Source: Patescibacteria group bacterium
GTDB lineage: Bacteria > Patescibacteriota > Patescibacteriia > UBA9934
Reading direction: 5' to 3'
Length of the DNA: 64,000 nt
NCBI GenBank assembly: GCA_018062825.1
Contig: JAGORL010000002.1
Location: forward strand, 129,629-193,628
A program made the position numbers and the translations under genes. The notes below the pieces were generated by a model. It did no database searches. It had not been told where the DNA came from and saw only the letters and a program-made list of their open reading frames with translations. Shown piece by piece: positions 1,362-55,087 of this stretch. Numbering within the stretch: the stretch's first letter is position 1; the number at the start of each line of letters is the position of its first letter.

Positions 1362-1371
1362 CGACAACACG

Positions 1372-31238: not shown

Positions 31239-31239
31239 T

Positions 31240-32102: not shown

Positions 32103-32145
32103 CTATACCTGTTGAGTAATCACTCAAGCAGCTACACGATCGTCA

Positions 32146-35100
32146 TTAGAAGACGAGGGTGTTGCCGTTAAGGGTGATGTTGTCAACAAGGTATGAACCC
32201 CACCAGCTGTTAGCAGTGGTAGAGGTCGTAGAACCATCATCCTTCCAGAAGAAGCTTGATGGCATACGATCCAAGTCATCACCAGCATCGTTAGCTGAAG
32301 ATGAATCTGGGTAGGTACCGAGGTATCCACGAACAACGGTGAGGTCATTCGTAGCGATGCCTGTAACAAGCATCTTTTCGTCGGTAGCACCACAGTTGTT
32401 GTCAGCCGTATCCATACATACTACGTCACCTACCAAGTATGCAGCGCCACTGGTTACCGAAATGGTGGTATCGGTAGCGGTGAGGTTGGACTCAGTAAGG
32501 TCAGAAGCCGTAATGAACGTTGAAACGATAGGATCTGTTCCGATGTCGAAACGGATAGAATCGTCATCATTTGAGGAAGCACCGGTGGAGTCAAAGTACA
32601 ACGAGAACGTGTACGAGCTACCAGCAGGCACAACTTCGGAAGTCGCAAGATCAAGCTTGGCGAACTTCACGACGTCAGTGTCATCGGTACAAACCGTACC
32701 ATCCGTTGTAAGAAGTGACCATTCACCGTCTGCTGCATCGAGGGTCTGGCTCGTACCATCAACCGTAAGGTTGTAAAGGTCAAAGTCAGAAGCCTGCATG
32801 TTACCTGCGCCGCCATCGTTAGCGTCACAGATATTCCAGGTACCACTGTTGTTAGCGGTAGAAGTCATGGTGAATACCAACTGGTCAAGTACTACATCCT
32901 CGTTAGAAGAAGCAGCTACGTTGAAGCGGTAAACCTCAGAACGACCTGGAACAGCGGAACCGGAAGGGCTAGCGGAAGACAACGTTACGGTTGGCTTGGA
33001 CTCACGAACTACGAAGGTCTTAATGCCATCAGTAGAATCGTCACCAAGAACAGTCAAGTTGTCGTCATCAAGCGTCTCACCAGAACCGATACCTGTAGCA
33101 CGGAAGTTGTCATCGTTCGTGGTGTCAGCGAAGAGACCCATGCGGATCTTCTCGTTTGAGGTGGCAGAACCACCGGAGTCACGATCGGTGAGAGGAACAT
33201 TTACGTAAACCTTCACATCCTCTGGTGAACCAGTTGGAACATGGAAGGAAAGGTTTGAGAACTTTGCCTCATTGCCACTCATAGAAGCCGTTGCAGTAAG
33301 CATGGTGCCAGCTGCATTTGGGTATTCAATGGTAACAAGTGAGATGTTGTTCGTGTATGCAGTGGACTCTGAAACACCTGTGTTGTCCTCACCTTCCTCT
33401 TCAGAAAGGGTCAAGGTCTTCACATCAAATCCTTCGTTGGTAGCCGTAAAGCGGTACGTCGCAACATGGTTCATCGAAGATGAGCTCATGACGAAGTCTG
33501 CAGAAGGCGTGTCAGAACCAACAGTGATAGCAAGGGTACCAGAAGCCGCTACGGTAAGAACCGTGGTAGGCGTGGTGCCGCCGTTAACATCTGTACCGGA
33601 AGCGTCAATGGAATCACCATCGTTGTCCTCAGCAACTACGTCAGTAGCTGCATCGTTGATGTCAAGCGCGAAGAAGCGGTTTGAAGCATCTGATGGGTTA
33701 GCCAAGTTACACATTACGGATACGTTCTCAGACTGGCCGGCCGCAATGGTCCAAGCAAAGTCATCGAAGCTGATTGACTGACCGTTTGTGGTAGGAGCCT
33801 CTGGACCAGCAACCAAGGTATCACCCTGGTAGAGGGAACAGGACTCAATGAAATCGTTAACATCAGATGCAGCCTCACCACCTGCGGTGAATCCACCTGA
33901 ATTGTCGTCATCACCGTAGGCAGCAAGGGTAAGGTCAGTGACCGTTACCTCTGAAGCATCGCCGGCGGTAGCGGTGAAACCAACTACGCCAACGTTGTCA
34001 GAACCCTGAACTGTTGTGGTGTCTGAAGGTGTGCTTGACAAGGTGAATGCCAAGGAAGCGCTCTTTGCCGTGTGGGAGAAACCAACAAGGTCAGAGCTAG
34101 GAACGATATCGGAAGAAACAAGCTCATCGCCGTTCTCATCCTCAATCTCAAGACCAGAAAGATCAAGTGTTGCACCAAACTCAGTACCAGACGTGATGTC
34201 GGCATTGAGGTCAGCGGTAACAGCAAGATTCAAGGTCTCACCAGCTTCAACGGTGAAATCATCGTTGAAACCAAGTGTCTGTACAGCATCATTGCCACTG
34301 GTAGAAAGTTCTACTGGACCCATGAGAACTGCACCGGTATCAGCGTTAACGATCTTGATATCTTCAAGAGCGCCCTCTGATGTACCAATGAGAAGACCAT
34401 CGTTATCAGAACCACCTGCCTCAGCGCCATCAAATGGATCGTTGTCGGCATCGTCATCACCGTAAACAAGAACATCAAGATCCTTGATCGTGATCTCCTG
34501 AGAAGCAGTGATAGAGAACTCGAAGATGGACTGGTCATCACCATCAATCTGCAAGTCACCAGCGGAAGGACCATTGAAAGCGAGTGTTACATCGCCGCCC
34601 TGGATTTCGCTGTATGAACAGTTGCCAGATGAAGAGGTACATGAAGCACCATCGTAGGTACCGGAGGAATCAGTGTCTACCGCTACGCCGAAGCCGAAGT
34701 CATCGCCGATGGCAACAACGTCTACTGCGTCGTCAACGTAAACCTTGATCTCATCCTGTGCCTGACCACCGATGTCGGCAGTAAGCTTGAAGATGTTGCT
34801 GTCGCCATCCTCAATCATGAATGGATCGCTGGAGAGGTCGAAGAGAACGTAGTCTCCACCGATGTCCTCACCTTCTGCAAGCCAAGCGGAACCATCGTAA
34901 AGCTGGAAGTCAGAGTGATCTGCTGCATCCTCAACCTTCAAGGTGATGGATTCAACGGAAACTGGCTCAGAGCCGGCTTCGATCTTGAACTCTGCGATAT
35001 CAGCATCCTGCTCACCAAGAGTAGGATCAGAGATGGAACCGTTCTTCTTTACAACTGCGGTACCTGCTGAGGAACCGGAAAGTGTAAAGATGTTACCTGC

Positions 35101-36243
35101 TACTGGGAAAGAACCGTCTACATCACCAGAAGCTACTACATCACCTGCTGAGGCGATCTGGAAGCCAAAGGTGTCAGCTGCTGTAGCAGAGGTAGAAACC
35201 TCAACGCGAGCAGTAAGTACACGGGAGTCACCAGCATCAACAGCCAAGTTAAGGTTGTTGAAAGTCACCATGCGGGTAGAAGCGTTTACGGAACGTGCCT
35301 CAGTAAGGCGGGTGTTGCCCTCATAGAGGTATACGTTCTCGATGTTGCTGGTAGAACCAGCACCGATGAGCTTAAGCGCGATGTTGTCGAGCTCGCCATC
35401 AGTATCAGCCTCAACTTCGAAGCTGAAAACAGCTACGGAGTTTGCACCCTTTGGAAGGGTGGTACCAACTGGCATGGAAGAAGCCTCGGAGATCATAAGA
35501 TCGCCCATAACTCCATCATTACCAGACATGTCGGTCTCGGTCTGAGCTACGTCAACGAGAGCAAGAAGCTCGCCGGTAACGTCGTCGCCCATAGAAAGAG
35601 CGCTGTCGTCAATGCTCGAACCGTCCATAACGAACTTGTTCTGGAAGCCGTTAGCGGTCATGCCGTTTGCGGTTACCATCAACATTTCGCCATCCCAGAC
35701 GAGGTAGGTGTCACCACCCATCTCGTAAAGCATGCCTTCGTAAGCCTCAGAGCTCATAAGAGATGGGCCAACGGAGTAGTCAGTGAAGAAGACGTCCGCA
35801 ACGTCAACGATGCGGGACGCCCAGTCAGCGCCAGCCAAGCCTACAGCTACTGCCTCGGACTCGATCCAGTGGATCATACCGTTGCGAGCTACTGCGTAGG
35901 TCTTTGGATCAGACTGGACTTTAACCCAGTAAGAACCTGGACGCATAACAACGTTGCCACCGAGCGTGATCGCGGAAAGCGAGCTGTCGGAAATGGTCAT
36001 GACGCCACTGAAATCAGTGAACCAAGTCATGTACGTCGTCTCATTCGGGAACGTGTAGCGCATGCCGTCGTAACCGTAGTAGTAAACCGTGCTCAAGGAA
36101 GTACCCTTGATAAGGTCACCTGCGGTCGCGGCATGTGCGGTGGAAGGGCTCACAAGAGCGCCAGCACCAACGGAGAAAGCGATCGTCGCTGCTGCGATTG
36201 CGGCAGAGAAAGCGCGCTTGCCCATATAAAGCACATGTTGCAT
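32146..36243 (-). CDS. Giant (1365 aa) secreted S/T/D/G-rich surface protein, adhesin or S-layer-like.
   Basis: Signal peptide 'AAIAAATIAFSVGAGALVSPSTAHA' and long low-complexity beta-rich repeats. The antisense ORFs are junk. Confidence 0.7.
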   Translation of the reverse strand: MQHVLYMGKRAFSAAIAAATIAFSVGAGALVSPSTAHAATAGDLIKGTSLSTVYYYGYDGMRYTFPNETTYMTWFTDFSGVMTISDSSLSAITLGGNVVMRPGSYWVKVQSDPKTYAVARNGMIHWIESEAVAVGLAGADWASRIVDVADVFFTDYSVGPSLMSSEAYEGMLYEMGGDTYLVWDGEMLMVTANGMTANGFQNKFVMDGSSIDDSALSMGDDVTGELLALVDVAQTETDMSGNDGVMGDLMISEASSMPVGTTLPKGANSVAVFSFEVEADTDGELDNIALKLIGAGSTSNIENVYLYEGNTRLTEARSVNASTRMVTFNNLNLAVDAGDSRVLTARVEVSTSATAADTFGFQIASAGDVVASGDVDGSFPVAGNIFTLSGSSAGTAVVKKNGSISDPTLGEQDADIAEFKIEAGSEPVSVESITLKVEDAADHSDFQLYDGSAWLAEGEDIGGDYVLFDLSSDPFMIEDGDSNIFKLTADIGGQAQDEIKVYVDDAVDVVAIGDDFGFGVAVDTDSSGTYDGASCTSSSGNCSYSEIQGGDVTLAFNGPSAGDLQIDGDDQSIFEFSITASQEITIKDLDVLVYGDDDADNDPFDGAEAGGSDNDGLLIGTSEGALEDIKIVNADTGAVLMGPVELSTSGNDAVQTLGFNDDFTVEAGETLNLAVTADLNADITSGTEFGATLDLSGLEIEDENGDELVSSDIVPSSDLVGFSHTAKSASLAFTLSSTPSDTTTVQGSDNVGVVGFTATAGDASEVTVTDLTLAAYGDDDNSGGFTAGGEAASDVNDFIESCSLYQGDTLVAGPEAPTTNGQSISFDDFAWTIAAGQSENVSVMCNLANPSDASNRFFALDINDAATDVVAEDNDGDSIDASGTDVNGGTTPTTVLTVAASGTLAITVGSDTPSADFVMSSSSMNHVATYRFTATNEGFDVKTLTLSEEEGEDNTGVSESTAYTNNISLVTIEYPNAAGTMLTATASMSGNEAKFSNLSFHVPTGSPEDVKVYVNVPLTDRDSGGSATSNEKIRMGLFADTTNDDNFRATGIGSGETLDDDNLTVLGDDSTDGIKTFVVRESKPTVTLSSASPSGSAVPGRSEVYRFNVAASSNEDVVLDQLVFTMTSTANNSGTWNICDANDGGAGNMQASDFDLYNLTVDGTSQTLDAADGEWSLLTTDGTVCTDDTDVVKFAKLDLATSEVVPAGSSYTFSLYFDSTGASSNDDDSIRFDIGTDPIVSTFITASDLTESNLTATDTTISVTSGAAYLVGDVVCMDTADNNCGATDEKMLVTGIATNDLTVVRGYLGTYPDSSSANDAGDDLDRMPSSFFWKDDGSTTSTTANSWWGSYLVDNITLNGNTLVF

Positions 36244-36411
36244 AAAGAGATTTATTCATCCTTTAACCCGGATGAAGGGGTATATATAAGTTGTGGGCAT
36301 GCGTAAGCCTTGCGGCTCTCGACCTTTCGTACGCATACAAGGATGTATAGACATCCCTTTGCGAAAGACCTTGAGACAAGATCTTTCGGCAAGGAAAGAA
36401 GAGGAAACCTC

Positions 36412-37527
36412 TTATTGACCGGCGTTTTCTAACGGCACCGTTTCTACCACTTCTGGGACCACTTCAGCAACCGGAGCCGCTAAAGCCTGAACGACCGTAA
36501 ATTCTACCGCTGCAAGTTGAGCCTCAAGACCAAGGAGAGCGTCATCGATCTGATCAAGAATGACAAAGGCATTTCTGAATCCTCCAGCCGCCACGCTATC
36601 CATAGCATCCGGGATTCTGACAAGAACGTGGTCAGCAGTATACGTCAGCTCGTTAAACTCATCAGCCGTTGGAACAGCAACCTGTGTAAAGGCTTCCGGA
36701 CGAGAAGCGATAAGCCCCTGCAACTTAGCTATACGATGCAGATTAAAGGCCTGACGCGACTGCACATCCCCAAGTTCTCGCATGAACATCTCACGCATCT
36801 CACGCTCGGAAACTTGAGAACCTTCCTCTTCGTGAGCCACAACCGCTACCTCAGTAACCACTCCCTGCGCTTCCTGAATAGTTGCTTGAGCCGAGCGCAC
36901 ATCTTCTGAAACAACCTCACCCGCTCCCTCTTGCGCACCAACTGTAGCGTTTAACGCGTCATCAAGGACATCAAGCTTTTCTTGCACGCTTACCGCTACC
37001 GAGAGAACGGCACTGTTACCCGCAGATTGCTGTAACGTTTGAATGCTCTGCGTGGCTGAAGCTACCTCTTTCTTATATGCCTCAAGTGTTCCTTGGACGT
37101 AATCATTTTTCTGTGGATCAACCTTAGCGGCCTCTTGCAGCTGAGCGACCTCATACATACGACGCTGGGCAAACTCTGTATGCAGAACCGCTTGCTTATC
37201 TAAGGAAGCAAGCTTGAGCTGCGCCTGTTCAGTAATAATCTTTACTGAATAAAGCGTATCGCCCGGCAAACTGTCAGCCGCGGCGCTCACCGTAGTCATC
37301 CAGCCACCAAACACTACCGCCAAACTTGCAGCGCTAGCGGCCAGCGGACGAGAAACAAAAGCTCCAGTAGCCCAAGCTGGAAAAGCCATGAAAGATGGGG
37401 ACTGCGATTCTTCGATGCCCAAAGACGCAAAAAGACGAGCCTTCCCCTGCTCTTGGGCAGAGGCGGAAAGTGCTCCGAGTTCCGGAGCGTCTTTCAAAGC
37501 TCGTAATTTTTTAATCGCGTTGGACAC
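36412..37527 (-). CDS. Putative membrane-anchored anti-sigma factor (coiled-coil). Inferred from its position immediately downstream of the ECF sigma gene.
   Basis: Cytoplasmic N-terminus, a single TM helix (AASLAVVFGGWMTT) and an extracytoplasmic coiled-coil domain. Confidence 0.4.
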   Translation of the reverse strand: MSNAIKKLRALKDAPELGALSASAQEQGKARLFASLGIEESQSPSFMAFPAWATGAFVSRPLAASAASLAVVFGGWMTTVSAAADSLPGDTLYSVKIITEQAQLKLASLDKQAVLHTEFAQRRMYEVAQLQEAAKVDPQKNDYVQGTLEAYKKEVASATQSIQTLQQSAGNSAVLSVAVSVQEKLDVLDDALNATVGAQEGAGEVVSEDVRSAQATIQEAQGVVTEVAVVAHEEEGSQVSEREMREMFMRELGDVQSRQAFNLHRIAKLQGLIASRPEAFTQVAVPTADEFNELTYTADHVLVRIPDAMDSVAAGGFRNAFVILDQIDDALLGLEAQLAAVEFTVVQALAAPVAEVVPEVVETVPLENAGQ

Positions 37528-37535
37528 AGGATTGT

Positions 37536-38078
37536 TTATTGAGAAAGTTTATCTTCCAGAGCCTTACGTGCACGATGCAGAAGCACACGTACATTGTTTG
37601 AGCTCTTACCTAATACAGACGCTATTTCAGGCACAGTCATTTCACTAAGGAAGCGCATAACGAGAATTTCTCGATATTCTTCTTTAAGCGATCGAATGAC
37701 CTGAGCTACTTTTTCCGCTTCAGAACGCGCATCAACCTGACCTTCAAGTGAACTTGATTCCGGTAGCGTGCTCGCTACGTCGTCATTAAGTTCCAACTCT
37801 GGGCGACGTTCTTGCTTGCGATAATGATCAGCAACAAGATTGCGCGCTATCCTATATAACAAGGCTCCGGGGCTAGAAACCACACTTGCACGCATATACT
37901 CCCAGCCGCGCAGGAACACCTCACTTGTCAATTCATCAACGTCCTCCACTTTCGCTACCTTGAAGTAGATGTATTTGCGAACACGCGAAAAATGAAGGTC
38001 ATAGATCTGACCATAGGCGCGGGCATCTTGATAACGATGCACGCGGAAGGCGAGGAATTTTTCCTGGAGCGCCGACAT
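37536..38078 (-). CDS. RNA polymerase sigma-70 family, ECF subfamily.
   Basis: Region 2 'LYRIARNLVADHYR' and region 4 'EILVMRFLSEMTVPEIASVLGKSSNNVRVLLHRARKAL'. Confidence 0.85.
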   Translation of the reverse strand: MSALQEKFLAFRVHRYQDARAYGQIYDLHFSRVRKYIYFKVAKVEDVDELTSEVFLRGWEYMRASVVSSPGALLYRIARNLVADHYRKQERRPELELNDDVASTLPESSSLEGQVDARSEAEKVAQVIRSLKEEYREILVMRFLSEMTVPEIASVLGKSSNNVRVLLHRARKALEDKLSQ

Positions 38079-38285
38079 GTATTAAGTCGTTATAAAAAGA
38101 AGATCATTACACCACCCATAAAAAACCGCTAAACTGACTGCAAAACCTACCATAAACCGGTCTAAAAGAGCAATGGAGTGAAAAATGGCCATAAAACTTT
38201 TGGCTACACCTGTTTTGACAAACACCTTCAAGCACCGTAAAGTATGAAACATTAAGACGCGACGCTAAGCCAAACGTTACAGTCT

Positions 38286-38570
38286 ATGTCTACCACCTCA
38301 CAAATCAGGCTCTCAGTCTCAGAAGCCGCTAAGATCTTCGGTGTAAGCACTCGAACCGTACGTCGCGCCATTGCCGACGGCGAAGTTAGCTACATCGTCG
38401 TTCAAGGCAGATACAAGATCGCCTTCCCTTCCCTACTTGCCTGGTCACAACGCACCACAACCGTCAAAAACAAGCTGGCAAAAGAAGGCATTGGCCAATA
38501 CGTAGCCCAGTGGTCCATTAAGAACACACTCTACTCGCCAAAGGCGCCTGAAAAAGGACTTGAAGCCTAA
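38286..38570 (+). CDS. Small HTH DNA-binding protein (excisionase/MerR-like HTH_17).
   Basis: 'LSVSEAAKIFGVSTRTVRRAIADGEVSY'. Confidence 0.6.
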   Translation: MSTTSQIRLSVSEAAKIFGVSTRTVRRAIADGEVSYIVVQGRYKIAFPSLLAWSQRTTTVKNKLAKEGIGQYVAQWSIKNTLYSPKAPEKGLEA

Positions 38571-39699
38571 AGTGACTATGCGCGCCTATAAAGACAAGAT
38601 CTTAGCTCAATTCCTTGACGAACTCCCTGTCGTCTCACTTAAGACACTCCTCAAGCCACAAACAAATGAATTACGAGCACTACGAAACGCCCTTGAATCG
38701 GAAACAGGCGCTCTACCTCTATTGTCGTTCCCGAGGGTCAATTCATTTCAGGTAGCAGACGCAAAACAGGCAGCACACGCCATACACCAAAAAATAGCGA
38801 GCTCCCCCGCTCACCCGATCCTAGTACGCTTCTACCTTGAAAAACTTTCAGAGTACGAACTAAAAATCGATCTCATTGAAGCCGTACAAAAGGATGACTC
38901 GCTTGCCATTGGTCGCTTAACACAAAAAATCCACGGCCCAGTCACTATCACAACTAACAAATACGAAGAGTTGATCACGAAACGTCTACAAGACCACAAG
39001 GCGATCACACCGAAAAAGAAATCTAAAACCGTGAACGCTGAAACCTTTGCAAAACTAGCGCGACAAAAGCTAGACGCGATCGGCGGCCAAGACTGGGCAA
39101 TCAAGGTAATGAAACGAGATCGCATCCAGATCGCCTACAAAAGAGCCGGCTCCGCAACGCTACGCATTCCAGCTGACCTTGAACTAACGAAAAAGCGTGC
39201 AGAGCAAATTCTGCGTCATGAAATTGACGGACATGCAAAACGCACAATAAACGGCTTACAAAGCGGCTATAAAATCCTCGGTCGAGGACTAGCGTATTAC
39301 AAACGAACCGAAGAAGGCGTGGCAACGCACATCCAGAAAACGGTAAATAGCGGGCTCTGGGACGGATACGCCGCAAGCCTCCGTAAAGAACAAGATCTGC
39401 AAGAGGCCTACAATGCACTCGTAGAGAAAAAAATGCGGTACTATCAAAGCCTCAAAAAAACTGACGCTAAAGATCTCGCAAAAGCTAGCGCCTGGCGACT
39501 AATCAAGCGAACGCTCCGCGGAGTGCACGATCCTTCTCAGGCTGGAGCCGCCTTCTTCCGCACGCATATTTACTTTGAAGGTAAAGAAGAGGTGCGCAAA
39601 GCAATTAAAAAAAATCCACTCATCATGAACGATCTCATGATCGGCAACATCGGCCTACAGCACGTACACGAAGTCAAAGAACTCTTAGCGACAAAATAA
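38560..39699 (+). CDS. DUF1704-like protein with an HExxxH motif and a QEGLA-like motif.
   Basis: 'RHEIDGHAKR' (HExxxH) and 'EEGVATH' resemble the QEGLA-motif family. Confidence 0.45.
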   Translation: MKPKVTMRAYKDKILAQFLDELPVVSLKTLLKPQTNELRALRNALESETGALPLLSFPRVNSFQVADAKQAAHAIHQKIASSPAHPILVRFYLEKLSEYELKIDLIEAVQKDDSLAIGRLTQKIHGPVTITTNKYEELITKRLQDHKAITPKKKSKTVNAETFAKLARQKLDAIGGQDWAIKVMKRDRIQIAYKRAGSATLRIPADLELTKKRAEQILRHEIDGHAKRTINGLQSGYKILGRGLAYYKRTEEGVATHIQKTVNSGLWDGYAASLRKEQDLQEAYNALVEKKMRYYQSLKKTDAKDLAKASAWRLIKRTLRGVHDPSQAGAAFFRTHIYFEGKEEVRKAIKKNPLIMNDLMIGNIGLQHVHEVKELLATK

Positions 39700-42238: not shown

Positions 42239-42257
42239 AGTATATCAGGCGCACCAC

Positions 42258-42280
42258 TATTCCCTATACCCTATTCCCTA
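42258..42280. repeat. CTATTCCCTA-type direct repeats (flank motif only).
   Basis: ctattccctataccctattcccta. On the minus strand this lies at the -35 region of the TGaTATACT extended -10 promoter of 40988..42238. Confidence 0.5.
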
Positions 42281-42331
42281 AAAAGAAAACCGGCGCACCC
42301 CTCCCACCCGAAGGTAGAAGAAGTGCGCCGG
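42281..42331 (-). terminator. Intrinsic terminator with a UUCG loop and G-U wobble pairs (minus-strand specific), followed by a U-tract.
   Basis: Minus strand: ccggcgcac-uucuucuacc-UUCG-ggugggagggg-ugcgccgg-uuuucuuuuu. Confidence 0.7.
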
Positions 42332-42356
42332 TGCGTGCCGCGCGGAGTCGTGTCCG

Positions 42357-45218
<2,862 letters not shown>

Positions 45219-45287
45219 GAGAACCTCGGGCTACAGGGTGAATAGGAACGTGATTTTTCACACGCTAATTGTGAACGAACTAGGCTA

Positions 45288-45316
45288 AATATAGCAAAAA
45301 AATGGCATTTTGTCAA
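45288..45316 (-). promoter_or_regulatory. Extended -10 promoter TTGACA-N17-TGcTATATT.
   Basis: Minus strand: gaTTGACAaaatgccatttttttGcTATATTtagcc, about 63 nt upstream of the ATG at 45218. Confidence 0.6.
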
Positions 45317-45317
45317 T

Positions 45318-45360
45318 CAAAAAAAGAACTCCCGTACCGCCTTTTCAGGTGGTACGGGAG
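45318..45360 (-). terminator. Rho-independent terminator: 10-bp stem CUCCCGUACC/GGUACGGGAG followed by a U-tract.
   Basis: Minus strand: ctcccgtacc-acctgaaaaggc-ggtacgggag-ttcttttttt. Confidence 0.7.
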
Positions 45361-45366
45361 CACGCG

Positions 45367-46071
45367 TCACGCGCAACGCTTGCGGCGCAACAAGTAACCG
45401 ACGAAGGGCAGCAGGATTACCGGGAAGCCGCCACTCGAGTCGCACCGACAACCCGGATCACCCAGGAAGGGCGGCGGACTCGTGGAGCACCGGCAGCCGG
45501 TTGCGGGAAAGCCACCGGTGTCACCAGAGCACTCGCCCTCGATCTCATCCACACAACCGTCGCAGTTGTTGTCACGACCGTCCTCCGGAATCTCGGGCGC
45601 ACCAGGGTAGGTGGCCGCGTCCCAGGGATCGCAGTCGTCGAGCGCCTCGTAGACGTCGAGCGCCACGAAGCCATCGCCGTCGCAGTCGTTGTCGAGCACG
45701 TCAGCGTCGCCCTCATCCCAGAGGCCGTCGCAGTCGTTGTCGATCCCGTCACACACCTCCACGGCGCCCGGATTGGTCTCCGAGTCGCCGTCGTTGCAGT
45801 CGTGTACGGCGGGATTGAAATTGCCGTAAACGTAGGCCGTGGCCATAGGGGCGTTCGGATCATCCGGATCCTCGTGCCACTCCGGCCCCTCCTCCAGGCA
45901 CCCAAACGGGTCCGCGTAGCGGGGCCACTTCTTCGTGGCCTCGTGACAGTTCACGAAGCCGTCGCCATCGACGTCATCTTCGGTCTTGTTACACCCCCCA
46001 AGGAGGGTGAAGAGCAGGAACAGGAACATGGTAAAGAGCGTCTTCACGGCGCCTCCAGGGTTGGGGTTCAA
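45367..46071 (-). CDS. Acidic lipoprotein with three MopE-like repeats and a C-terminal Cys / hydrophobic / Arg-rich tail (PEP-CTERM/MYXO-CTERM-like).
   Basis: Lipobox 'LLGGC'. 'PGAVEVCDGIDNDCDG' repeats. C-terminus 'GCRCDSSGGFPVILLPFVGYLLRRKRCA*'. Confidence 0.7.
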   Translation of the reverse strand: MNPNPGGAVKTLFTMFLFLLFTLLGGCNKTEDDVDGDGFVNCHEATKKWPRYADPFGCLEEGPEWHEDPDDPNAPMATAYVYGNFNPAVHDCNDGDSETNPGAVEVCDGIDNDCDGLWDEGDADVLDNDCDGDGFVALDVYEALDDCDPWDAATYPGAPEIPEDGRDNNCDGCVDEIEGECSGDTGGFPATGCRCSTSPPPFLGDPGCRCDSSGGFPVILLPFVGYLLRRKRCA

Positions 46072-46088
46072 GAAATCGTGAAGAGTAA

Positions 46089-46117
46089 AATATAGCAGAA
46101 ATTAGCGAAAATGTAAA
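46089..46117 (-). promoter_or_regulatory. Extended -10 promoter TTTACA-N17-TGcTATATT.
   Basis: Minus strand: cTTTACAttttcgctaatttcTGcTATATTttactc. Shares 'ttttcgctaatttctgctat' with the promoter at 244-272. Confidence 0.6.
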
Positions 46118-46149
46118 GAGTCTAGGGTGTGGAGTATTCAGCCATTTAT

Positions 46150-46272
46150 CTACTCCCTACTTACAGCCCCAACGTAGTCCGGCTCCGCCGGACGAAGTGG
46201 GCCCTACTCCCTACTTACTACTCACTACTCTCTATCCCCTATTCCCTATTCTCTATACCCTATCCCCTAAAA
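46150..46272. repeat. Dispersed structured repeat, copy D (core 46164-46203), with an extended array of CTAYTCCCTA-type direct repeats.
   Basis: cagccccaacgtagtccggctccgccggacgaagtgggcc flanked by ctactccctac...ctatcccctattccctattctctataccctatcccct. Confidence 0.75.
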
Positions 46273-46321
46273 GAAAAAGCGCGCCCCTCACTCACCCCCG
46301 AAGGAATGAATGAGGAGCGCT
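46269..46321 (-). terminator. Intrinsic terminator with a UUCG tetraloop. The stem pairs only with G-U wobbles on the minus transcript.
   Basis: Minus strand: agcgcuccucauucauucc-UUCG-ggggugagugaggggcgcgcu-uuuucuuuu. Confidence 0.75.
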
Positions 46322-46346
46322 ACGTCACCTCACGAGCTCGACCGAC

Positions 46347-47705
46347 CTACAGGTCGATCTTGCAGATGAAGTGGTACTCGTCCGGGTGCTTGTTGCAGAC
46401 GCGAGCCGAGGGAGTGCTGTCCTCGGTCAGCGAGATCGTGTACGTATCGCCATCGATCTCGAGGCGATCCACGTGCTCCACCACGCTTCCGCCGCTGTTC
46501 TCGAGGCCCCAGGTCTCGTCGTCGCCGTCGAAGTCGCCGTCACCGTTCTCGTCGCACCAGAGCTGGAGACGGTACTCTTCGCCGTCGTCGAACTCGAGCT
46601 CGTCTTCGTGGGTGTTGGCGTCGTCGGGGTTGCCGACCTTCATCGGCCACTCGTCGCCCTCCTCGTAGTCGTCGTCGTGGACGAACATCGCCTGCCACTC
46701 CTCGCCGCTGCACCACGAGGACTGCTTGACCACGCTGACCTCGACCTCGTCCCCGTTGCTGGACTCGTCGCAGTCCTCGCAGTCGGAGTCGTCGTCGTCC
46801 TCGTCGCCGTCGCAGTCGTCGTCGACGCCGTTCTCGATCTCGTCCTCGTCCGGGTTCACGTCCGGGTCGTCGTCGTCGCAGTCCTCGTCGTTGCGGATCC
46901 AGCGCGAGGACGGCTGCTCGCCGATCTCGTACTCGTCGCAACGATCTTCGTCGCCGAAGCCGTCGCCGTCCGAGTCGTAGCAGTACTCGACCTCGTCGTC
47001 GCTCTGGCACTCGTCGTGCTCGTCCTCGTCGCCGTCGTCGCAGTCGTCGTCGTTGTCGACGTACCCGTTCGGCTCCTCGCCGTCCTGGTACATCGCGCAC
47101 TGGTCGGGGTCGCCGTACCCGTCGCCGTCGTCGTCGTCGCACCACTCGTCCTCGTCGTTGTCGTTGTCGTCGTCCGAGTCCTCGTCGAGGACTCGACAGA
47201 CGAGGTCTTCGCTGCGCGGGAGCTTCACGCACTCGCCGTAGTCGGGCGAGGCGCTCTCGTCGTCGCGGAGGTCCGAGACGTCGTACTCCTCACCGTCGAT
47301 CATGAGCTCCTCGATGTTGACGGTGATCCGCGAACTCGAGGAGCTGTTCTCCACGAGCCAGGTGTCGTCGTCCCCATCGCATCCGCCGTTCACGTAGATC
47401 AGGTCGCCGGCGTAGATGCCGATGACCCCTTCGAGCGTGTCGTCGTCCCCCTCTTCGAGCGGGTCGTCGTCCCAGCGGTCGGAGTTGTTGCGGCCGTTGT
47501 CGGTGATGTTGCGGACCCACAGCGACCAGTCGTCGTTCTCGCACCAGTCGCCGTCACGGGTGACGCTGATCTCAGCGTCCTCCCCGAGGCGCCAGAGCGC
47601 GTCGCTGTTGTCGGTGTTGTCGCTGCCGTCTCCCACGAGCTGGGTGGACGGGCTGCAGGCGCTCGTGGCGATGAGCGCCAGGAGGCCGAACGAGAAACGG
47701 GTCAT
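46347..47705 (-). CDS. Acidic D/C-rich lipoprotein: N-domain, MopE-like repeats, C-domain, ending in 'CKIDL'. Paralog of 48059..49315.
   Basis: Lipobox 'IATSAC'. 'DDDCDDGDEDEHDEC...DCDGDEDDDD'. C-terminus 'HFICKIDL*'. Confidence 0.7.
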   Translation of the reverse strand: MTRFSFGLLALIATSACSPSTQLVGDGSDNTDNSDALWRLGEDAEISVTRDGDWCENDDWSLWVRNITDNGRNNSDRWDDDPLEEGDDDTLEGVIGIYAGDLIYVNGGCDGDDDTWLVENSSSSSRITVNIEELMIDGEEYDVSDLRDDESASPDYGECVKLPRSEDLVCRVLDEDSDDDNDNDEDEWCDDDDGDGYGDPDQCAMYQDGEEPNGYVDNDDDCDDGDEDEHDECQSDDEVEYCYDSDGDGFGDEDRCDEYEIGEQPSSRWIRNDEDCDDDDPDVNPDEDEIENGVDDDCDGDEDDDDSDCEDCDESSNGDEVEVSVVKQSSWCSGEEWQAMFVHDDDYEEGDEWPMKVGNPDDANTHEDELEFDDGEEYRLQLWCDENGDGDFDGDDETWGLENSGGSVVEHVDRLEIDGDTYTISLTEDSTPSARVCNKHPDEYHFICKIDL

Positions 47706-47800
47706 GAGACCCTCCGTGCGGAAATGGCCCTAATGGCCGGTTGATTGGGAATGTTCCCCGTCGAAATCTGCAGGCTGATCCCGCCGAAATCGAACGGGCA

Positions 47801-47830
47801 ATACTACCAAAGAAACAGGAGCGATGTCAA
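47801..47830 (-). promoter_or_regulatory. Promoter TTGACA-N18-TAGTAT. An alternative TGGCAA-N16-TATAAT lies at 47851-47880.
   Basis: Minus strand: cTTGACAtcgctcctgtttctttggTAGTATtgcc, about 100 nt upstream of the ATG at 47705. Confidence 0.45.
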
Positions 47831-47969
47831 GCTTTTTGCTTAGGGTTAGCGATATTATAAGGAACAAAAAAGCGATTGCCAGATTGGGCGTCACAACCCC
47901 TCCAGTCAATCACTTGCACTAGTAATACGTTTGAAACATCAAAAAGTTTCACTAACCCACTAAAATATC

Positions 47970-48027
47970 CTTTAAAAGTAGAAGAGCGCCCCTCACTCAC
48001 TCCCGAAGGAATGAATGAAGAGCGCTC
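47970..48027 (-). terminator. Intrinsic terminator of the same family (UUCG loop, cctcactcactccc arm).
   Basis: gagcgcccctcactcactcccgaaggaatgaatgaagagcgctc. Its loop and arms are nearly identical to the 46269-46321 terminator. Confidence 0.65.
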
Positions 48028-48058
48028 ACGTGCCGTCTCGCTAGCTCAGCCAGTCGAC

Positions 48059-49315
48059 CTAGAGGTCGATCTTGCAGAGCCAGTCGAATCGGTCTTCGTC
48101 CTCGGGCAAGGTGCACTCGCCGGCGGAAGGGGTGTCGTCCCGATCGTCGCGGCGGATGTACTCCTGCCCGTCGATCTCGATCGACTCGAAGTTGTCCGCA
48201 CCGGACATGACGCCCCACGTGGTGGAGTCGTCCCACGGATCGTCGTTCTCGTTCGAGTCGCAGAAGGCCTGCACGGAGAAGATCTCCCCGTCCTCGACCT
48301 CGAGCTCGCCGGTCACGTCGTCGGTGCTGACCATGTCCATGGCCAGCTCCTCGTCCGCGTACCGATCGTCCTCGCCGTTCGCCTCGCGGTGAAAGCGGAC
48401 CTGCCACTGGTCGGAGTTGCACCAGGTTGCGTTCATCGCGACCATGACGTCGACGATGGTGCCACCGTTCGTGCAGTCCTCGCAGTTGCTGTCGTCCGTG
48501 TCGACGTCGCCGTCGCAGTCGTTGTCGACGTTGTCGTCGACTTCGTCTGCGTCGGGGTTGATCTCGTCGTCGGAGTCGTCGCAGTCGTCGTCGTTCGACA
48601 CGTAGTCGGAGGGTTCGTCACCCTCTTCGTACATGTCGCACTCGTCGCTGTCGCCGAAGCCGTCGCCGTCGTCGTCGAGGCAGAACTCGCTGGTCTCGCC
48701 GTCGGTCTCGTCCTCGTCCTGCTCGTCCTCGTCGGGAGTGCCGACGCGGCAGATCAGGTTGTGGTCGGAGTCGTCGTGGATCCGGCAGGTGCCGGCCGCG
48801 GGACTCGTGGTCGCCGCGGAGGAGACGTCGATGACGTACTCCACGTTGTCCACTTCGAGCCGGGAGATGTGGGTGATGTCCCCGTTCTCCACGAGCCAGA
48901 ACTGCTCGTCCATGACGCCGGTGCCGTTCAGGAGGAACTTGTCCCCCTCTTCGAGGTTGACGTCGCCGACCAGGATCCGGCTGTCACCGATCTCCACGAT
49001 GTTCGTCGGGAAGACGAAACCATCGAGATCGGTGGTGACCCAGAACTCCCAGTCGCCGTCGAGATCGTTGTACACGTCGGAGCTGAGCGTGACCTCGAAG
49101 GTCATCTCGCTGCCGGTCGTGTCGTCGGTCTCGTCGTCGGTGTCGTCCTCGTCCGAGTCGCTGCCGATCGTGTCGACGTTGTCGTCGTTCGGCACGACCC
49201 CGTTGCCGGGGCTCATGCTCTCGTCGTCGGTGTCGCCACCGACGCGCTCCACAGAGGGGACGCCGCAAGCGGCGAGAGACACGAAGGACAGGGTGAACAG
49301 GATGCTGCGGAACAT
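48059..49315 (-). CDS. Acidic D/C-rich lipoprotein ending in 'CKIDL'. Paralog of 46347..47705.
   Basis: Lipobox 'LAAC'. Shared N- and C-domain motifs (WLVEN, IEIDG, TWG). C-terminus 'FDWLCKIDL*'. Confidence 0.7.
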   Translation of the reverse strand: MFRSILFTLSFVSLAACGVPSVERVGGDTDDESMSPGNGVVPNDDNVDTIGSDSDEDDTDDETDDTTGSEMTFEVTLSSDVYNDLDGDWEFWVTTDLDGFVFPTNIVEIGDSRILVGDVNLEEGDKFLLNGTGVMDEQFWLVENGDITHISRLEVDNVEYVIDVSSAATTSPAAGTCRIHDDSDHNLICRVGTPDEDEQDEDETDGETSEFCLDDDGDGFGDSDECDMYEEGDEPSDYVSNDDDCDDSDDEINPDADEVDDNVDNDCDGDVDTDDSNCEDCTNGGTIVDVMVAMNATWCNSDQWQVRFHREANGEDDRYADEELAMDMVSTDDVTGELEVEDGEIFSVQAFCDSNENDDPWDDSTTWGVMSGADNFESIEIDGQEYIRRDDRDDTPSAGECTLPEDEDRFDWLCKIDL

Positions 49316-49414
49316 GGTGCCTCCAAGGCAGGGTGGCCGGAATGGCCGAAGTCACAGTAACTATGTGGAAAGGTTCGCGTCGAAACCGATGTTGCCATCA
49401 ATCTCGAACAGTCT

Positions 49415-49443
49415 ATAGTAACAGAAATTTAGGAAAATGTCAA
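49415..49443 (-). promoter_or_regulatory. Extended -10 promoter TTGACA-N17-TGtTACTAT.
   Basis: Minus strand: ccTTGACAttttcctaaatttcTGtTACTATagact. Confidence 0.6.
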
Positions 49444-49474
49444 GGGTGAACGTATGTATTTAGGCTAATATAAG

Positions 49475-49520
49475 CCATAAAAGAAGAATTCCCCCACGCA
49501 GCCGAAGCTGGTGGGGGAAC
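49475..49520 (-). terminator. Rho-independent terminator with a UUCG tetraloop.
   Basis: Minus strand: guucccccac-cagc-UUCG-gcug-c-gugggggaa-uucuucuuuuau. Confidence 0.7.
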
Positions 49521-49541
49521 GAGCGTCGACCGAAGTCGATG

Positions 49542-50183
49542 CTAGAACGTGTGGTCGCAGGTCGTCGGACCTGGCTCGAGGACTTCGCCGTCGGAGAAGA
49601 GGAAACAGGCGGAACCGCGAGCGAACTGGTCCTGCCAGTAGTACTGGCTGGAGTTCGGCACCTCCGCCCACTCGAGCCGCGACGTGTCGTCGAGGTCGTT
49701 GAGGGCGCGGAAGTTCACGCGGTGTGGGCCTTCGAGGGTGAGGTTGGCGCAACGCCAGGTCTCCCCCGCGTGCTCCCACACATACGCCTCGACGGCCGAG
49801 GTGACCCAGTCGCCGCAAGCGGAGTTGGGATCCTCGGAGTCGGGGACGCCGTCGTTGTCGCAGTCCTCGTCCTCGTCGACCCACGGCTCTCCGGACAGGC
49901 CGTAGCCCACCAGGTATCCGACCTCGGAGTACCCGAACAGATCGTTCCGCCCGCAGAAGCTGGCGACCTGACCGTTCTCGTTCGTGAACGCCAGGTGGTA
50001 CTGCTTCCCGTCGGGCTCGCCGTTCTCGTCGAAGTCGGACGACTCGTCGCCGGCGTCGCGGTCGGGACGGTCGCTGCTCTCGCAGGCGACCTCCTCCCCG
50101 GCGCTGTTGGTGCACACCGGCTGTTGGCAGCCGATGAGGAACAGGGACGCGAGGATGGTGTTCAGGAACAAGCTGCCATTCAT
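49542..50183 (-). CDS. Acidic secreted lipoprotein (about 213 aa) with Asp/Cys-rich segments.
   Basis: The start was trimmed to MNGSLFLNTILASLFLIGC (lipobox). The 37-residue N-terminal extension in the ORF track lacks signal-peptide character. Confidence 0.6.
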   Translation of the reverse strand: MNGSLFLNTILASLFLIGCQQPVCTNSAGEEVACESSDRPDRDAGDESSDFDENGEPDGKQYHLAFTNENGQVASFCGRNDLFGYSEVGYLVGYGLSGEPWVDEDEDCDNDGVPDSEDPNSACGDWVTSAVEAYVWEHAGETWRCANLTLEGPHRVNFRALNDLDDTSRLEWAEVPNSSQYYWQDQFARGSACFLFSDGEVLEPGPTTCDHTF

Positions 50184-50376
50184 GGCGGACTCCAGGATGT
50201 AGGGTTTTCGAACCGGTGGTGAGCATCCACGCCGCTTGCGCAGCGCAGAAGGCGGCGAAGACACTCGCCCGAAAAGCGCTCTAGAGTAAAGCATTTTTCG
50301 GGAGAGACCTTCGCCACTGCTCGCCAGATATAAATCCGTGGAAGTGGGGCCAGAATGGCGCTGTAAAGAACGTAAG

Positions 50377-52760: not shown

Positions 52761-53771
52761 TTACCGAAGAAACATCGCGTCGCCAAATGAAAAGAAGCGA
52801 TACTCCAAACGCTTCGCTTCCTCGTATGCCGCAAGCACTCGCTCACGACCGACAAAAGCCGAAACAAGCACAAGAAGCGTAGACTTTGGTAAATGAAAGT
52901 TTGTAATCAGTCCATCAATCATCAAAAACGTATATCCCGGCTTAATGAACATGTTCACCTCGCCAGCATAAGCAACAAGTTCGCCACCATGAAGTGACGC
53001 CACGCCTTCAAGAACGCGTGTCGTGGTCGTACCAACCGCAACAATCCGCCGACCTTCACGCTTCGCAGTCATGATGCGCGTACTAGCTCCTTCTGAAACA
53101 CTAACCCATTCGCTATGCATCTCATGACCCTCAAGCGTTTCTGACTGCACGGGCCGAAACGTACCAATGCCAACGTGCAAAAGCACGTACTCAATCTGCA
53201 CGCCCTTCGTACGAAGCTTATGCAAAAGTTCATCTGTAAAATGAAAACCTGCCGTTGGAGCCGCTACCGAGCCAACATCTTTGGCGTACACCGTCTGATA
53301 ATCTTTTTCACTCGTAGACGCATCCTTTACGTACGGAGGTGTTGGAATCTGACCAAACTCATTACAAAAAGCGAGCATCTCCCCGGCAGTCATCGTTGTT
53401 TTCAATCGAACAACGCCATCATTAGCTTTGGCAGTAATAACAAATGACTGACCAAAAATACGAACCGTACCTTTTACTGAGAACTTCTTACCCGGCTTAA
53501 GCAAACACTCAACCTCGCCGTCAGCAATTCTCAAAACAAACACTTCAACTCCCCCATCAATCAAACGGGCCTTAAAAACCTTCGAACGATTAAAAACAAG
53601 AACATCTCCGGCGTTAAGTTCATCAATAATGTTAAAAAACTGCCTATGCTCAATAGCGCCCGTGGCTCGATCCATTATTAAAAGCTTGGAGTGATCCCGT
53701 GGATTAACCGATCGCTGAGCGATAAACTCAGGGGGCAATTCGTAGTCAAAATGACTGATCGGCGTTGGCAT
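52761..53771 (-). CDS. queA: S-adenosylmethionine:tRNA ribosyltransferase-isomerase.
   Basis: MPTPISHFDYELPPEFIAQRSVNPRDHSKLLIMDR... with full-length similarity to QueA. Confidence 0.9.
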   Translation of the reverse strand: MPTPISHFDYELPPEFIAQRSVNPRDHSKLLIMDRATGAIEHRQFFNIIDELNAGDVLVFNRSKVFKARLIDGGVEVFVLRIADGEVECLLKPGKKFSVKGTVRIFGQSFVITAKANDGVVRLKTTMTAGEMLAFCNEFGQIPTPPYVKDASTSEKDYQTVYAKDVGSVAAPTAGFHFTDELLHKLRTKGVQIEYVLLHVGIGTFRPVQSETLEGHEMHSEWVSVSEGASTRIMTAKREGRRIVAVGTTTTRVLEGVASLHGGELVAYAGEVNMFIKPGYTFLMIDGLITNFHLPKSTLLVLVSAFVGRERVLAAYEEAKRLEYRFFSFGDAMFLR

Positions 53772-53842: not shown

Positions 53843-55087
53843 TCAGACGACGACCTTGCGCTCGGCGTCTGCAAGAAGCGCGCGAGCGTCAGCAAGGATC
53901 TGCTCCTCTTCGCTCAGAGCATGCGCGCAGCGCTCGTACTCCACACAGGTCTGCTCGTAGAGCGCCTTGAGTCGATCCCGCTCCGCTGCAGCCGACTTCT
54001 CGGCGCCGGAAGCGCGCTTCACTGCGCTCGTTGCGTCCTTCACCTGCCGGCGCAAGCCAGCAACGCTCTGCAGAAGCTCCGTCCGCTCCCGCAACCCCCG
54101 AAGCTCCTCCTCGAGATCGTCATCCGACAGCCGAAGCGCTGTCGGTACGACAAGCGGCTCGACGGTGCAACCAGGGGGTTCACGAGTCATGATGGCAGGA
54201 TCCTCCGAGACGAAGTCGTCGACAGACGGAAAGACAGGAACGGGAGACTCTTCAAGCACGATTGCCACCCGCTCGACCACGACCTTGCTCAGGTGTGCGA
54301 TGGCGGCATCGTACTGCTGCGGATCGGGATAGATCCGACTCAGATCCACTTCTCCCTGCACCGCATTCAGTGCCGGCAGCTCAGCAAAGCGCTTCTGCAT
54401 GCGCTCTGGCCGCAAGACGTACACGTTCCCGCGCTTATGGCGCTGGTACACGCGAATCGCCTTCAGCTTGGTGAAGTACTCGAGCGCCTCCCGCTCCGTC
54501 ACCTCACGGAACTCCGGAAGTCCGCACAGCGTTTGCACGAAGTCAGCCGTGAAGACTTCATCTGTCGGGTACGTAGCCTCTACCCGCACCACGACCGCGA
54601 TCAGGTTGCGCAGGCTGGCGTACAGCCTCATGCACACATTGACCACGTCAGTCTGCGAATCTGGTGGTTGGTTCGGCGCCGTTTGCGCCGCCACCGGCTT
54701 CGCGCCCTCATCACCAGCCTCGTCCACGGTGATGTACGAGCCATACTCCTTGATCATCTCGCGCCAGACCTGTAGGCAGGCTGGGCTGAAAGATGCAGTC
54801 TGCACATCCGGGTGTTCCGGGTTCAGGATGAACTCAGGCTCACCCATGTTCGGCCGATCGATCTTGACGACCATGGCCGGTCGGCCAAGTGCCACGTTCG
54901 GTCGTAGCGACACTTGGCGCAGAATATTCGCTGCCGACCGCGTCTCGCGGTTCACGGAGCGCAGACTCTGAAACCGCTTCACTGCGTCTTCCAGACCACC
55001 GATGTAGTCGGAAAGGCCCATCGGCCCGTTTCGCAGCAAGCTCAGCAGAGCCTCCTTGAGGTCCTGTATTGACTCGGACGTTCGCAA
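53843..55087 (-). CDS. GC-rich hypothetical protein with a C-terminal coiled coil. Probable TTG start.
   Basis: 414-aa ORF. An in-frame TGA lies immediately upstream of TTG with the SD-like sequence agaggtg. A promoter lies upstream. Confidence 0.45.
   Translation of the reverse strand: MRTSESIQDLKEALLSLLRNGPMGLSDYIGGLEDAVKRFQSLRSVNRETRSAANILRQVSLRPNVALGRPAMVVKIDRPNMGEPEFILNPEHPDVQTASFSPACLQVWREMIKEYGSYITVDEAGDEGAKPVAAQTAPNQPPDSQTDVVNVCMRLYASLRNLIAVVVRVEATYPTDEVFTADFVQTLCGLPEFREVTEREALEYFTKLKAIRVYQRHKRGNVYVLRPERMQKRFAELPALNAVQGEVDLSRIYPDPQQYDAAIAHLSKVVVERVAIVLEESPVPVFPSVDDFVSEDPAIMTREPPGCTVEPLVVPTALRLSDDDLEEELRGLRERTELLQSVAGLRRQVKDATSAVKRASGAEKSAAAERDRLKALYEQTCVEYERCAHALSEEEQILADARALLADAERKVVV

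Follow-up and report, generated by a model that had tools for sequence, protein, structure and literature searches.

The C-terminal tail of a small, very acidic surface lipoprotein of Patescibacteria (candidate phyla radiation, CPR), encoded on the minus strand between positions 45367 and 46047 of a 64,000-nucleotide stretch of patescibacterial DNA (the window, meaning the whole stretch analysed), resembles the MYXO-CTERM class of sorting signals beyond what chance would yield. The tail is made of a Cys motif, a hydrophobic helix and a basic cluster; the Cys motif is canonical for the class, and it is the helix that has diverged. By the criteria of Haft the tail is not a MYXO-CTERM member, though the resemblance is clear, and the comparison of sequences presented below indicates that it probably descends from that class. 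The reading tentatively favoured here is that the tail now serves as a stop-transfer anchor in a single membrane, for which no dedicated enzyme would be needed, and the reading in which it is still a signal for cleavage comes close to it in likelihood.

The lipoprotein and the layout of its tail

An open reading frame (ORF) ending at 45367 on the minus strand, with the C-terminus ...GFPATGCRCSTSPPPFLGDPGCRCDSSGGFPVILLPFVGYLLRRKRCA, is present exactly as described in an earlier note on this DNA, and its product is, as that note had proposed, a lipoprotein (lipobox LLGGC). The length of 234 residues given there did not hold: it corresponds to a mechanical ORF opened by a TTG at 46071, while the sequence context makes it almost certain that translation starts at the GTG at 46047, where a GGAGG lies 4 nt upstream and the product opens with MKTLFTMFLFLLFTLLGGC..., a textbook lipoprotein signal. 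The resulting 226-residue version is the call made in three assemblies, and the protein is identical to NCBI MBP9828109.1, annotated as 'putative metal-binding motif-containing protein [Patescibacteria group bacterium]'. The features of the gene and its product are the following:

46089..46117, minus strand: sigma-70-like promoter of the target gene, TTTACA-N17-TATATT, 10/12, kept in the close relative L092
45367..46047, minus strand: target gene, 226-residue acidic Cys-rich lipoprotein; GTG start at 46047, stop codon 45367-45369
45991..46047, minus strand: signal peptide with lipobox (MKTLFTMFLFLLFTLLGG followed by C), read from the sequence; Cys19 is the predicted lipidation site
45724..45804, minus strand: MopE repeat 1, HDCNDGDSETNPGAVEVCDGIDNDCDG, residues 82-108 (Pfam PF11617)
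45553..45639, minus strand: MopE repeat 2, family-specific variant DDCDPWDAATYPGAPEIPEDGRDNNCDGC, residues 137-165 (Pfam PF11617)
45478..45498, minus strand: first Cys motif, GCRCSTS, residues 184-190, aligning with GCDCDTS of the relative P0002
45433..45453, minus strand: second Cys motif, GCRCDSS, residues 199-205, abutting the hydrophobic segment
45388..45432, minus strand: hydrophobic segment GGFPVILLPFVGYLL, residues 206-220; 15 residues with 2 Pro, 3 Gly and no Ala
45370..45387, minus strand: basic cluster RRKR plus terminal CA, residues 221-226
45319..45360, minus strand: intrinsic terminator, hairpin of -27.4 kcal/mol followed by a U-run

The tail thus reads GCRCSTS-PPPFLGDP-GCRCDSS-GGFPVILLPFVGYLL-RRKRCA. 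The tripartite layout that had been proposed is real, and its GCxC[DE]SS motif is that of MopE proteins passing the MYXO-CTERM model, but the Cys motif, reported as single, occurs twice (residues 184-190 and 199-205). At the other end of the protein, L-G-G-C19 fits the lipobox pattern [LVI][ASTVIG][GAS]C and is kept in the L092 orthologue; all five proteins of the gene island to which the target belongs carry a lipobox. The AlphaFold 2 (AF2) model places a helix at residues 2-16 with a confidence (pLDDT) of ~90, but its mean pLDDT is 64 and that of the stalk formed by residues 175-209 is below 50, so that the model is too weak for a fold search. The mature protein has an isoelectric point of 4.05, 49 Asp+Glu, 11 Lys+Arg and 16 Cys, and two stretches of the target match the Pfam MopE family (PF11617) with 70.9 bits and E=9.8e-20 (the gathering cutoff being 27 bits).

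The tail against curated and local models of sorting signals

The protein was compared with the curated NCBIfam models of sorting signals, namely PEP-CTERM, the two MYXO-CTERM models, GlyGly-, PGF-, Synerg-, CGP- and JDVT-CTERM, LPXTG and many others. None of them matches, at E<=10, the whole target or its last 28, 31, 48 or 60 residues; the tail therefore lies below threshold everywhere, which is the first of two observations that, according to the earlier note, would together speak against its proposal. Such models can nonetheless see tails of this kind, because related MopE tails pass or come near the MYXO-CTERM cutoffs (20 bits for TIGR03901 and 15.85 bits for TIGR03382). Indeed, many MopE homologues of the target end in a Cys motif, a helix and an Arg cluster, and several of them reach or approach these cutoffs: tails of the Cys-type tripartite kind end 29 of 148 giant MopE representatives, and of nine control tails of the GCxC[DE]SS type taken from these 29 and scanned beside the target, seven pass TIGR03901 (20.7-27.8 bits), including that of the MopE protein P0139, with a GCSCDSS heptad, at 23.3 bits.

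A local profile was also constructed from 44 MopE-associated Cys tails and run without filters. The target tail scores 10.3 bits on it, against a median of 31.6 for the training tails and -1.4 +/- 2.5 (maximum 6.8) for 500 composition-matched shuffles. When the target motif was joined to a typical helix, the chimera scored 25.4 bits, while the converse chimera, with a typical motif and the target helix, reached 13.9 bits; it is for this reason that the motif can be considered canonical and the helix the diverged part. The composition agrees with this, as the target helix lacks Ala and abounds in Pro, Phe and Tyr, whereas helices of the class are rich in Ala, Leu and Gly.

According to Haft, MYXO-CTERM tails have a helix devoid of Pro or charged residues, GCGC is frequent in them, and the class is confined to Myxococcota and, as found later, Bradymonadales, singletons elsewhere being judged false; 6-43 member proteins per genome have been reported in Myxococcales. 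The target shows the layout of the class (signal peptide at 1-19, motif at 199-205, hydrophobic segment at 206-220 and RRKR at 221-224) and its invariant Cys, often accompanied by a second one, as GCRC is found twice. On the other hand, it does not attain the score of the class, its helix contains two Pro, and its host belongs to Patescibacteria, with a CPR-type backbone (DUF4012 proteins, many Pfam-less genes). The requirement for a helix without Pro appears soft, given that Pro is present in 15 of the 29 Cys-type tails of giant MopE proteins. Among the ORFs of the 64-kb window no second tail of this kind is present, and in the two flanks beyond it no further gene stood out as a tail carrier. 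In the literature, nothing relevant was found on CPR sorting signals or codon-usage islands.

Relatives of the protein and spread of the tail

The only other full-length member of the family found in 5.8 billion proteins, and among the 150 matches listed from 1.84 billion representatives, is P0002, which shows 41% BLASTP identity over 83% of the query. Similarly, among the 150 matches listed for a profile made of the target and P0002, only P0001 and P0002 are full-length, the rest being giant multi-repeat MopE proteins, and two metagenome scans yielded no further CPR orthologues of the target. The tail of P0002, ...SGCDCDTSSLNAAWIPLGILLMFTRRRIMMS, keeps GCxC[DS][ST]S, a Pro-containing helix and RRR, has (F/I)P(V/L)xILLxF plus RR in common with that of the target, and scores 29.7 bits on the local profile. 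In the alignment of both proteins, GCDCDTS of P0002 pairs with the first motif of the target, GCRCSTS, leaving an extra copy in the latter; the second motif, GCRCDSS, is an internal duplication specific to the target. At the P0002 locus (L004), small MopE lipoprotein genes stand in tandem, every one with a promoter and a terminator to itself, and a tail-less paralogue adjoins the P0002 gene. Outside this family, a MopE protein on a metagenome contig of 66% GC (L098) bears a very similar tail, ...GGCSCAATGTSAGWIPLLLGVAVLARRRR (…AGWIPLLLGV…RRRR). It follows from these comparisons that the tail is a heritable module travelling with MopE repeats, which at least two CPR lineages have retained and which paralogues have lost.

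The repeats themselves are widespread. They had been regarded in the earlier note as typical of Myxococcota, a notion that proved too narrow, as they are found in 26,033 representative clusters and, among the matches listed, in Bacteroidota, Nitrospirota, Acidobacteriota, a DPANN archaeon and other Patescibacteria. The archaeal case is a 3541-residue protein with MopE motifs and an ordinary GC content at third codon positions (GC3), encoded in a metagenome-assembled genome (MAG) of Woesearchaeota (L037:5738-16363), which places MopE repeats in another lineage of ultra-small, presumably host-attached cells.

Anchor or cleaved signal

A processing enzyme was searched for in the window and two flanks, which amount to 75.5 kb of the 197,747-bp contig JAHZTO010000049.1 (GCA_020049755.1). 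Motif scans, a transmembrane (TM) inventory, Pfam and NCBIfam scans and precomputed Pfam assignments revealed no sortase, CPBP/Rce1 protease, rhomboid, exosortase or archaeosortase in these 75.5 kb, nor any PF02517 or Mrt-family protein; the statement in the earlier note that the window holds no cognate sortase-type gene is therefore correct. A match to a CPBP-motif regular expression at 576-1370 (minus strand) was discarded: the matching ORF is not hydrophobic and shadows, in antisense, a GC3-rich ORF of the plus strand. Two large polytopic proteins encoded at 20495-22102 (minus) and 22750-24789 (plus), with 9 and 15 predicted TM segments, respectively, and no Pfam or NCBIfam match, lie within a glycan-biosynthesis cluster and are GT-C-like by eye only. 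A surface/regulatory cluster spanning 29204-39699 encodes an S8 subtilase (29204-31219), a 1365-residue surface protein (32146-36243), a DUF5667 protein together with an extracytoplasmic function (ECF) sigma factor (36412-38078) and a MATCAP/QEGLA-type metallopeptidase (38560-39699).

We lean, with reserve, towards the anchor, with which the single occurrence of the tail in the window, its drifted helix and the lack of a candidate enzyme nearby agree. According to this proposal, the protein would be exported by Sec and then lipidated at Cys19, as its lipobox suggests, and the C-terminal helix would stop the transfer and anchor the protein in the single cytoplasmic membrane, RRKR facing the cytoplasm in keeping with topology rules. 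A short ectodomain would thus be fastened to the membrane by both its ends, with residues 175-209 as a flexible stalk, no dedicated sortase system would be required and the tail would presumably remain uncleaved. An ancient exchange of the module with a GC-rich lineage using MYXO-CTERM is probable; its inheritance within Patescibacteria would now be vertical, the tail having diverged in this lineage in such a way that the GCxC motif was kept and duplicated while the helix was recomposed. The target would be one of five hyper-acidic, Cys-rich surface lipoproteins of the MopE type, putatively binding metal or Ca, encoded in a conserved island.

Several considerations weigh against the anchor. 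The motif G-C-x-C-x-[ST]-S is kept at 41% identity and duplicated in the target, which goes beyond the needs of a plain anchor, and a segment of 15 residues that include 2 Pro and 3 Gly would make a poor permanent TM helix, resembling instead the substrates of intramembrane proteases. Moreover, the anchoring of a lipoprotein by both ends is an unusual topology. The search covered ~40% of the source contig; elsewhere in the genome there may be a CPBP or rhomboid enzyme or further substrates. Finally, the surveys that confine myxosortases to Myxococcota used RefSeq representative proteomes, which, in our reading, are largely devoid of CPR MAGs.

These considerations lead to the main competitor of the anchor, possible though doubtful, in which, as the earlier note had predicted, the tail is a working sorting signal and there is an unrecognised processing enzyme elsewhere in the genome. 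After export, this enzyme, an intramembrane protease, would remove the helix at or near GCxC. By analogy, it might be CPBP/Rce1-like, and lipidation of the Cys is conceivable, such as has been put forward for MYXO-CTERM and, in monoderm cells, for archaeal CGP-CTERM/MrtA. The motif is of the same type as that of accepted MYXO-CTERM tails, is kept in P0002 and is doubled in the target, and the helix is rich in Pro and Gly like those of the class (the training helices of the local profile contain 6% Pro and 16% Gly). In addition, conserved cysteines are required for cleavage by MrtX, as described in the literature, and Haft pairs Cys-type tails with CPBP enzymes in several unrelated lineages, archaea included. 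In the experimentally established pathway, MrtX cleaves in a Cys-dependent manner, after which type II secretion delivers the protein to the surface of a diderm cell; the known range of the myxosortase core (model NF040914) is limited to Myxococcota and Bradymonadales. It is unlikely that this MrtX/type II secretion pathway applies unchanged in a CPR cell. A cleaved signal must also be reconciled with the lack of any curated model that accepts the tail, with its single copy in 64 kb, with the absence of CPBP, rhomboid, sortase or exosortase genes from the 75.5 kb and with the drift of the helix from the class consensus. CPR cells are not known to have the outer membrane that is targeted by the known pathway, which likewise counts against cleavage.

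The GC3-rich lipoprotein island and its age

The target gene lies in an island of five lipoprotein genes that contrasts sharply in composition with the rest of the window. Apart from the target, its components are the following:

42289..50345, minus strand: island of five separately transcribed acidic Cys-rich lipoprotein genes
42357-45218, minus strand: island gene 1, 953 residues, 12 MopE repeats (E=2.4e-94)
46347-47705, minus strand: island gene 3, 452 residues
48059-49315, minus strand: island gene 4, 418 residues, paralogue of the 452-residue gene
49542-50183, minus strand: island gene 5, ~213 residues

A sharp block of 60-64% GC extends from 42.0 to 50.3 kb, against 47-50% elsewhere. GC3 reaches 0.80-0.94 in the island and 0.38-0.52 in the backbone, while GC1 and GC2 are equal, and the shift covers all 18 degenerate amino acids; amino-acid composition was consequently rejected as its cause, and so was high expression, as rpsB and tsf have a GC3 of only 0.48-0.52. 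No part of the target gene is exempt, GC3 amounting to 0.84 for the signal peptide, 0.82 for the repeats and 0.74 for the tail. A formal scan identified near-consensus sigma-70-type promoters at four of the five genes (6 sites found, 1.7 +/- 1.3 expected), and a promoter-like site was seen by eye at the fifth. Strong terminator hairpins lie downstream of the island genes, and the spacers are host-like (45-51% GC), except for the short outermost one. No tRNA or Rfam family is present in the window, and neither an integrase nor flanking repeats were found around the island, the repeat search having returned only Asp-codon periodicity; hence, the island shows no mobile-element hallmarks.

The island is a genuine part of the CPR backbone and not an assembly artefact. 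In the MAG FW215_bin.11 of a distant patescibacterium (L059:271-5981), three adjacent MopE lipoprotein genes with a GC3 of 0.85-0.92, in a backbone of 0.52-0.60, adjoin the best-hit orthologues of both GT4 genes that flank the island of the window (48% identity, E=3e-122, and 32% identity, E=5e-63). A close relative, L092, has the same gene order and keeps the target promoter, and its orthologue of the 452-residue protein (L092:305-1654, 69% identity) has a GC3 of 0.96; when the two genes are compared, 30 of the 57 third-position-only differences at conserved residues are swaps between C and G. There is, in other words, no amelioration of the island GC3 in L092. The orthologue of the 418-residue paralogue (L093:88-1359) also has a GC3 of 0.96. 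Given the synteny in the distant L059 and the lack of amelioration in L092, a recent horizontal transfer of the island is unlikely, and the observations suggest instead that the island is old and that its GC-ending codons are under active maintenance. As regards the horizontal acquisition suggested in the earlier note, the foreign codon usage was borne out, but not a recent transfer.

It is therefore improbable that the tail is a remnant without function, left by a recent transfer from a donor resembling a myxobacterium and no more than tolerated. Such an origin would account for the GC3 of the island, for the presence of tail-carrying relatives on contigs of 66-71% GC and for the existence of tail-less paralogues. 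It is at odds, however, with the synteny in a deeply diverged Patescibacteria MAG, with host-like promoters and spacers, with a GC3 of 0.96 and a predominance of C/G swaps (30/57) in L092, and with the retention of the tail in P0002, the gene of which has an ordinary GC3 of 0.48 (0.48-0.61 for the genes of its locus). Furthermore, no near-identical donor was found in 5.8 billion proteins, the best non-self match having 41% identity.

A chance resemblance, that is, a generic C-terminal anchor following the cysteines of a Cys-rich domain, is equally hard to sustain. The protein does contain 16 Cys, and the curated hidden Markov models (HMMs) miss its tail, but the score on the local profile is above that of 500 out of 500 shuffles, many MopE proteins carry the GCxC[DE]SS heptad equally far from their helix, and the P0002 tail scores like a true member (29.7 bits).

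Highly improbable, finally, are two further explanations. One is that the protein is a substrate of an exosortase (PEP-CTERM), archaeosortase (PGF-CTERM) or rhombosortase (GlyGly-CTERM), the PEP and PGF variants being effectively refuted: the layout is tripartite, and a Gly-Gly pair and 'GGF' stand directly before the helix, but the tail has no PEP or PGF motif, so that the PEP-CTERM or archaeosortase type contemplated in the earlier note falls away; the GG pair is not kept in P0002; TIGR02595, TIGR04126 and TIGR03501 do not match the target at E<=10, in a run in which control tails matched weakly; no gene for an exosortase (EpsH), for ArtA or for a rhomboid emerged from scans of the window, and the 75.5 kb as a whole yielded neither a rhomboid nor an archaeosortase. 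The other is that a GC-rich foreign fragment was joined to a CPR contig during assembly or binning, as the abrupt changes at 42.0 and 50.3 kb and the breaks of independent assemblies within or at the edge of the island might suggest, but the EF-Ts/island right junction recurs in the independent assembly GCA_020047435.1 (L090), the island spacers have host-like GC and promoters, the same architecture is found in L059, L092 and L004, from other studies, and CPR backbone genes (ribosomal proteins, SecE, NusG, GyrB, MreB and RodA) flank the island on both sides.

Further observations on the island and on codon usage

The codon bias extends to other Pfam-less genes of the contig, such as those at 615-1361 (plus strand, GC3 0.84) and 53843-55087 (minus strand, GC3 0.73), to a Pfam-less gene beyond the right end of the window (GC3 0.73) and probably to a further one beyond its left end, for which the recorded call looks antisense. 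Two codon-usage regimes thus coexist in one small genome, with Pfam-less genes at a GC3 of 0.73-0.96 (including L005:12099-13445) and a backbone at 0.38-0.52. Because the genes are GC3-rich, long antisense shadow ORFs arise on the plus strand at 42480-45245, 45310-46095, 46371-47744, 47876-49360 and 49539-50222, as well as on the minus strand at 576-1370; across the whole island, the gene caller of the contig index chose the shadows and missed the real MopE lipoprotein genes.

Within the island, the longest ORF of the fifth gene (49542-50294) is over-extended, a plausible start being the ATG at 50183, preceded by GGAG and opening a lipoprotein signal, MNGSLFLNTILASLFLIGC. The 452- and 418-residue lipoproteins contain 31-35% Asp+Glu, both end in ...CKIDL and have near-identical terminators, which suggests a tandem duplication; full-length relatives of the two are very rare (three in 5.8 billion proteins). 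Their 5' leaders of ~100 nt, at 47706-47835 and 49316-49450 (both on the minus strand), are conserved in the orthologues (L092:175-304 and L093:1-87), but the consensus fold is weak (-3.3 kcal/mol) and a structured RNA is not supported. Tandem arrays of 7 nt, with minus-strand units like TAGGGRA, are located directly downstream of two island terminators, at 46202-46269 (~9 copies) and 42257-42280 (~3 copies), and are absent from the corresponding L092 spacer. The GC-rich 13-mer CCGGCTCCGCCGG, or its complement, occurs at 46179-46191 of the window and in the spacer 1663-2330 of L059, that is, in two distant Patescibacteria MAGs, and may be a small repeated element. The queuosine synthesis gene queA (52761-53771, minus strand) is located 2.5 kb away from the island. 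When present at position 34 of a tRNA, queuosine alters the decoding of NAC/NAU codons, which specify Asp, Asn, His and Tyr, residues in which the island proteins abound; a link with the bias is speculative.

Implications

Tails of the Cys type and CPBP myxosortases have been defined only recently, and experimental evidence has so far come from Myxococcus alone. A conserved, diverged CPR copy would therefore either widen the system to ultra-small cells with a single membrane or show that, after its transfer, the tail was re-used as a plain anchor. A more ambitious proposal, which we consider rather unlikely, is that Patescibacteria run Cys-dependent C-terminal sorting, with a MYXO-CTERM-derived tail cut by a CPBP-like or other intramembrane protease, and that the GC3 of ~0.9 of the substrates is held by selection. 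If true, Cys-dependent sorting in a single-membrane envelope would extend the myxosortase paradigm to the CPR, and the substrates would be hyper-acidic surface lipoproteins with a GC3 that does not derive from recent transfer.

Whatever the fate of its tail, the target is a candidate surface factor of organisms thought to be host-attached, and it may bind metal or calcium. The island represents a clean case of two codon-usage regimes, kept across relatives, in which the logic that equates atypical composition with recent horizontal gene transfer (HGT) fails, and which misleads gene callers into picking the antisense strand. Taken alone, the tail is a modest extension of a recent system; the codon-biased lipoprotein island is the more unusual finding.

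Comparison with known systems

Compared with the atypical islands usually attributed to HGT, that of the window shares a sharp GC shift (60-64% versus 47-50%), Pfam-poor genes and relatives in GC-rich taxa. It differs in that only the coding sequences are shifted, spacers and promoters being host-like, in that no integrase, tRNA or flanking repeats were found, and in its synteny in a distant relative without amelioration.

With its nearest known counterpart, MYXO-CTERM (TIGR03901/TIGR03382; processed by the CPBP/Rce1 myxosortases MrtX, MrtC and MrtP) the target tail has in common its position at the extreme C-terminus of a secreted protein, an invariant Cys with a frequent second one (GCxC), the hydrophobic helix, the Arg-rich cluster and a frequent attachment to MopE repeats, and its GCRCDSS is nearly identical to the GCSCDSS of a tail that passes the model. 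Unlike members of that class, it falls below both curated models, its helix has two Pro, Phe and Tyr and no Ala, it is found in a presumed monoderm of Patescibacteria and not in Myxococcota or Bradymonadales, an N-terminal lipobox is also present, it occurs as a single copy in the 64-kb window and no myxosortase was seen in 75.5 kb.

The CGP-CTERM/MrtA system of Thermococci, Synerg-CTERM/MrtS and JDVT-CTERM/MrtJ also share with the target the tripartite design and the invariant Cys, and their enzymes belong to the CPBP family; CGP-CTERM shows that Cys-type tails can work in a cell with a single membrane. The target, by contrast, does not match TIGR04288, TIGR04564 or NF033191 at E<=10, contains no CGP and no DP immediately before the helix, and comes from a different lineage. 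As for the surface proteins with MopE repeats (PF11617), the target resembles them in its two clear repeats, its acidic, Cys-rich composition and its neighbour gene with 12 repeats. At 226 residues, however, it is tiny next to the top-scoring members (1,000-6,000 residues), and within the family it belongs to a rare sub-family characterized by the variant repeat PWDAA[TV]YPGAPE.

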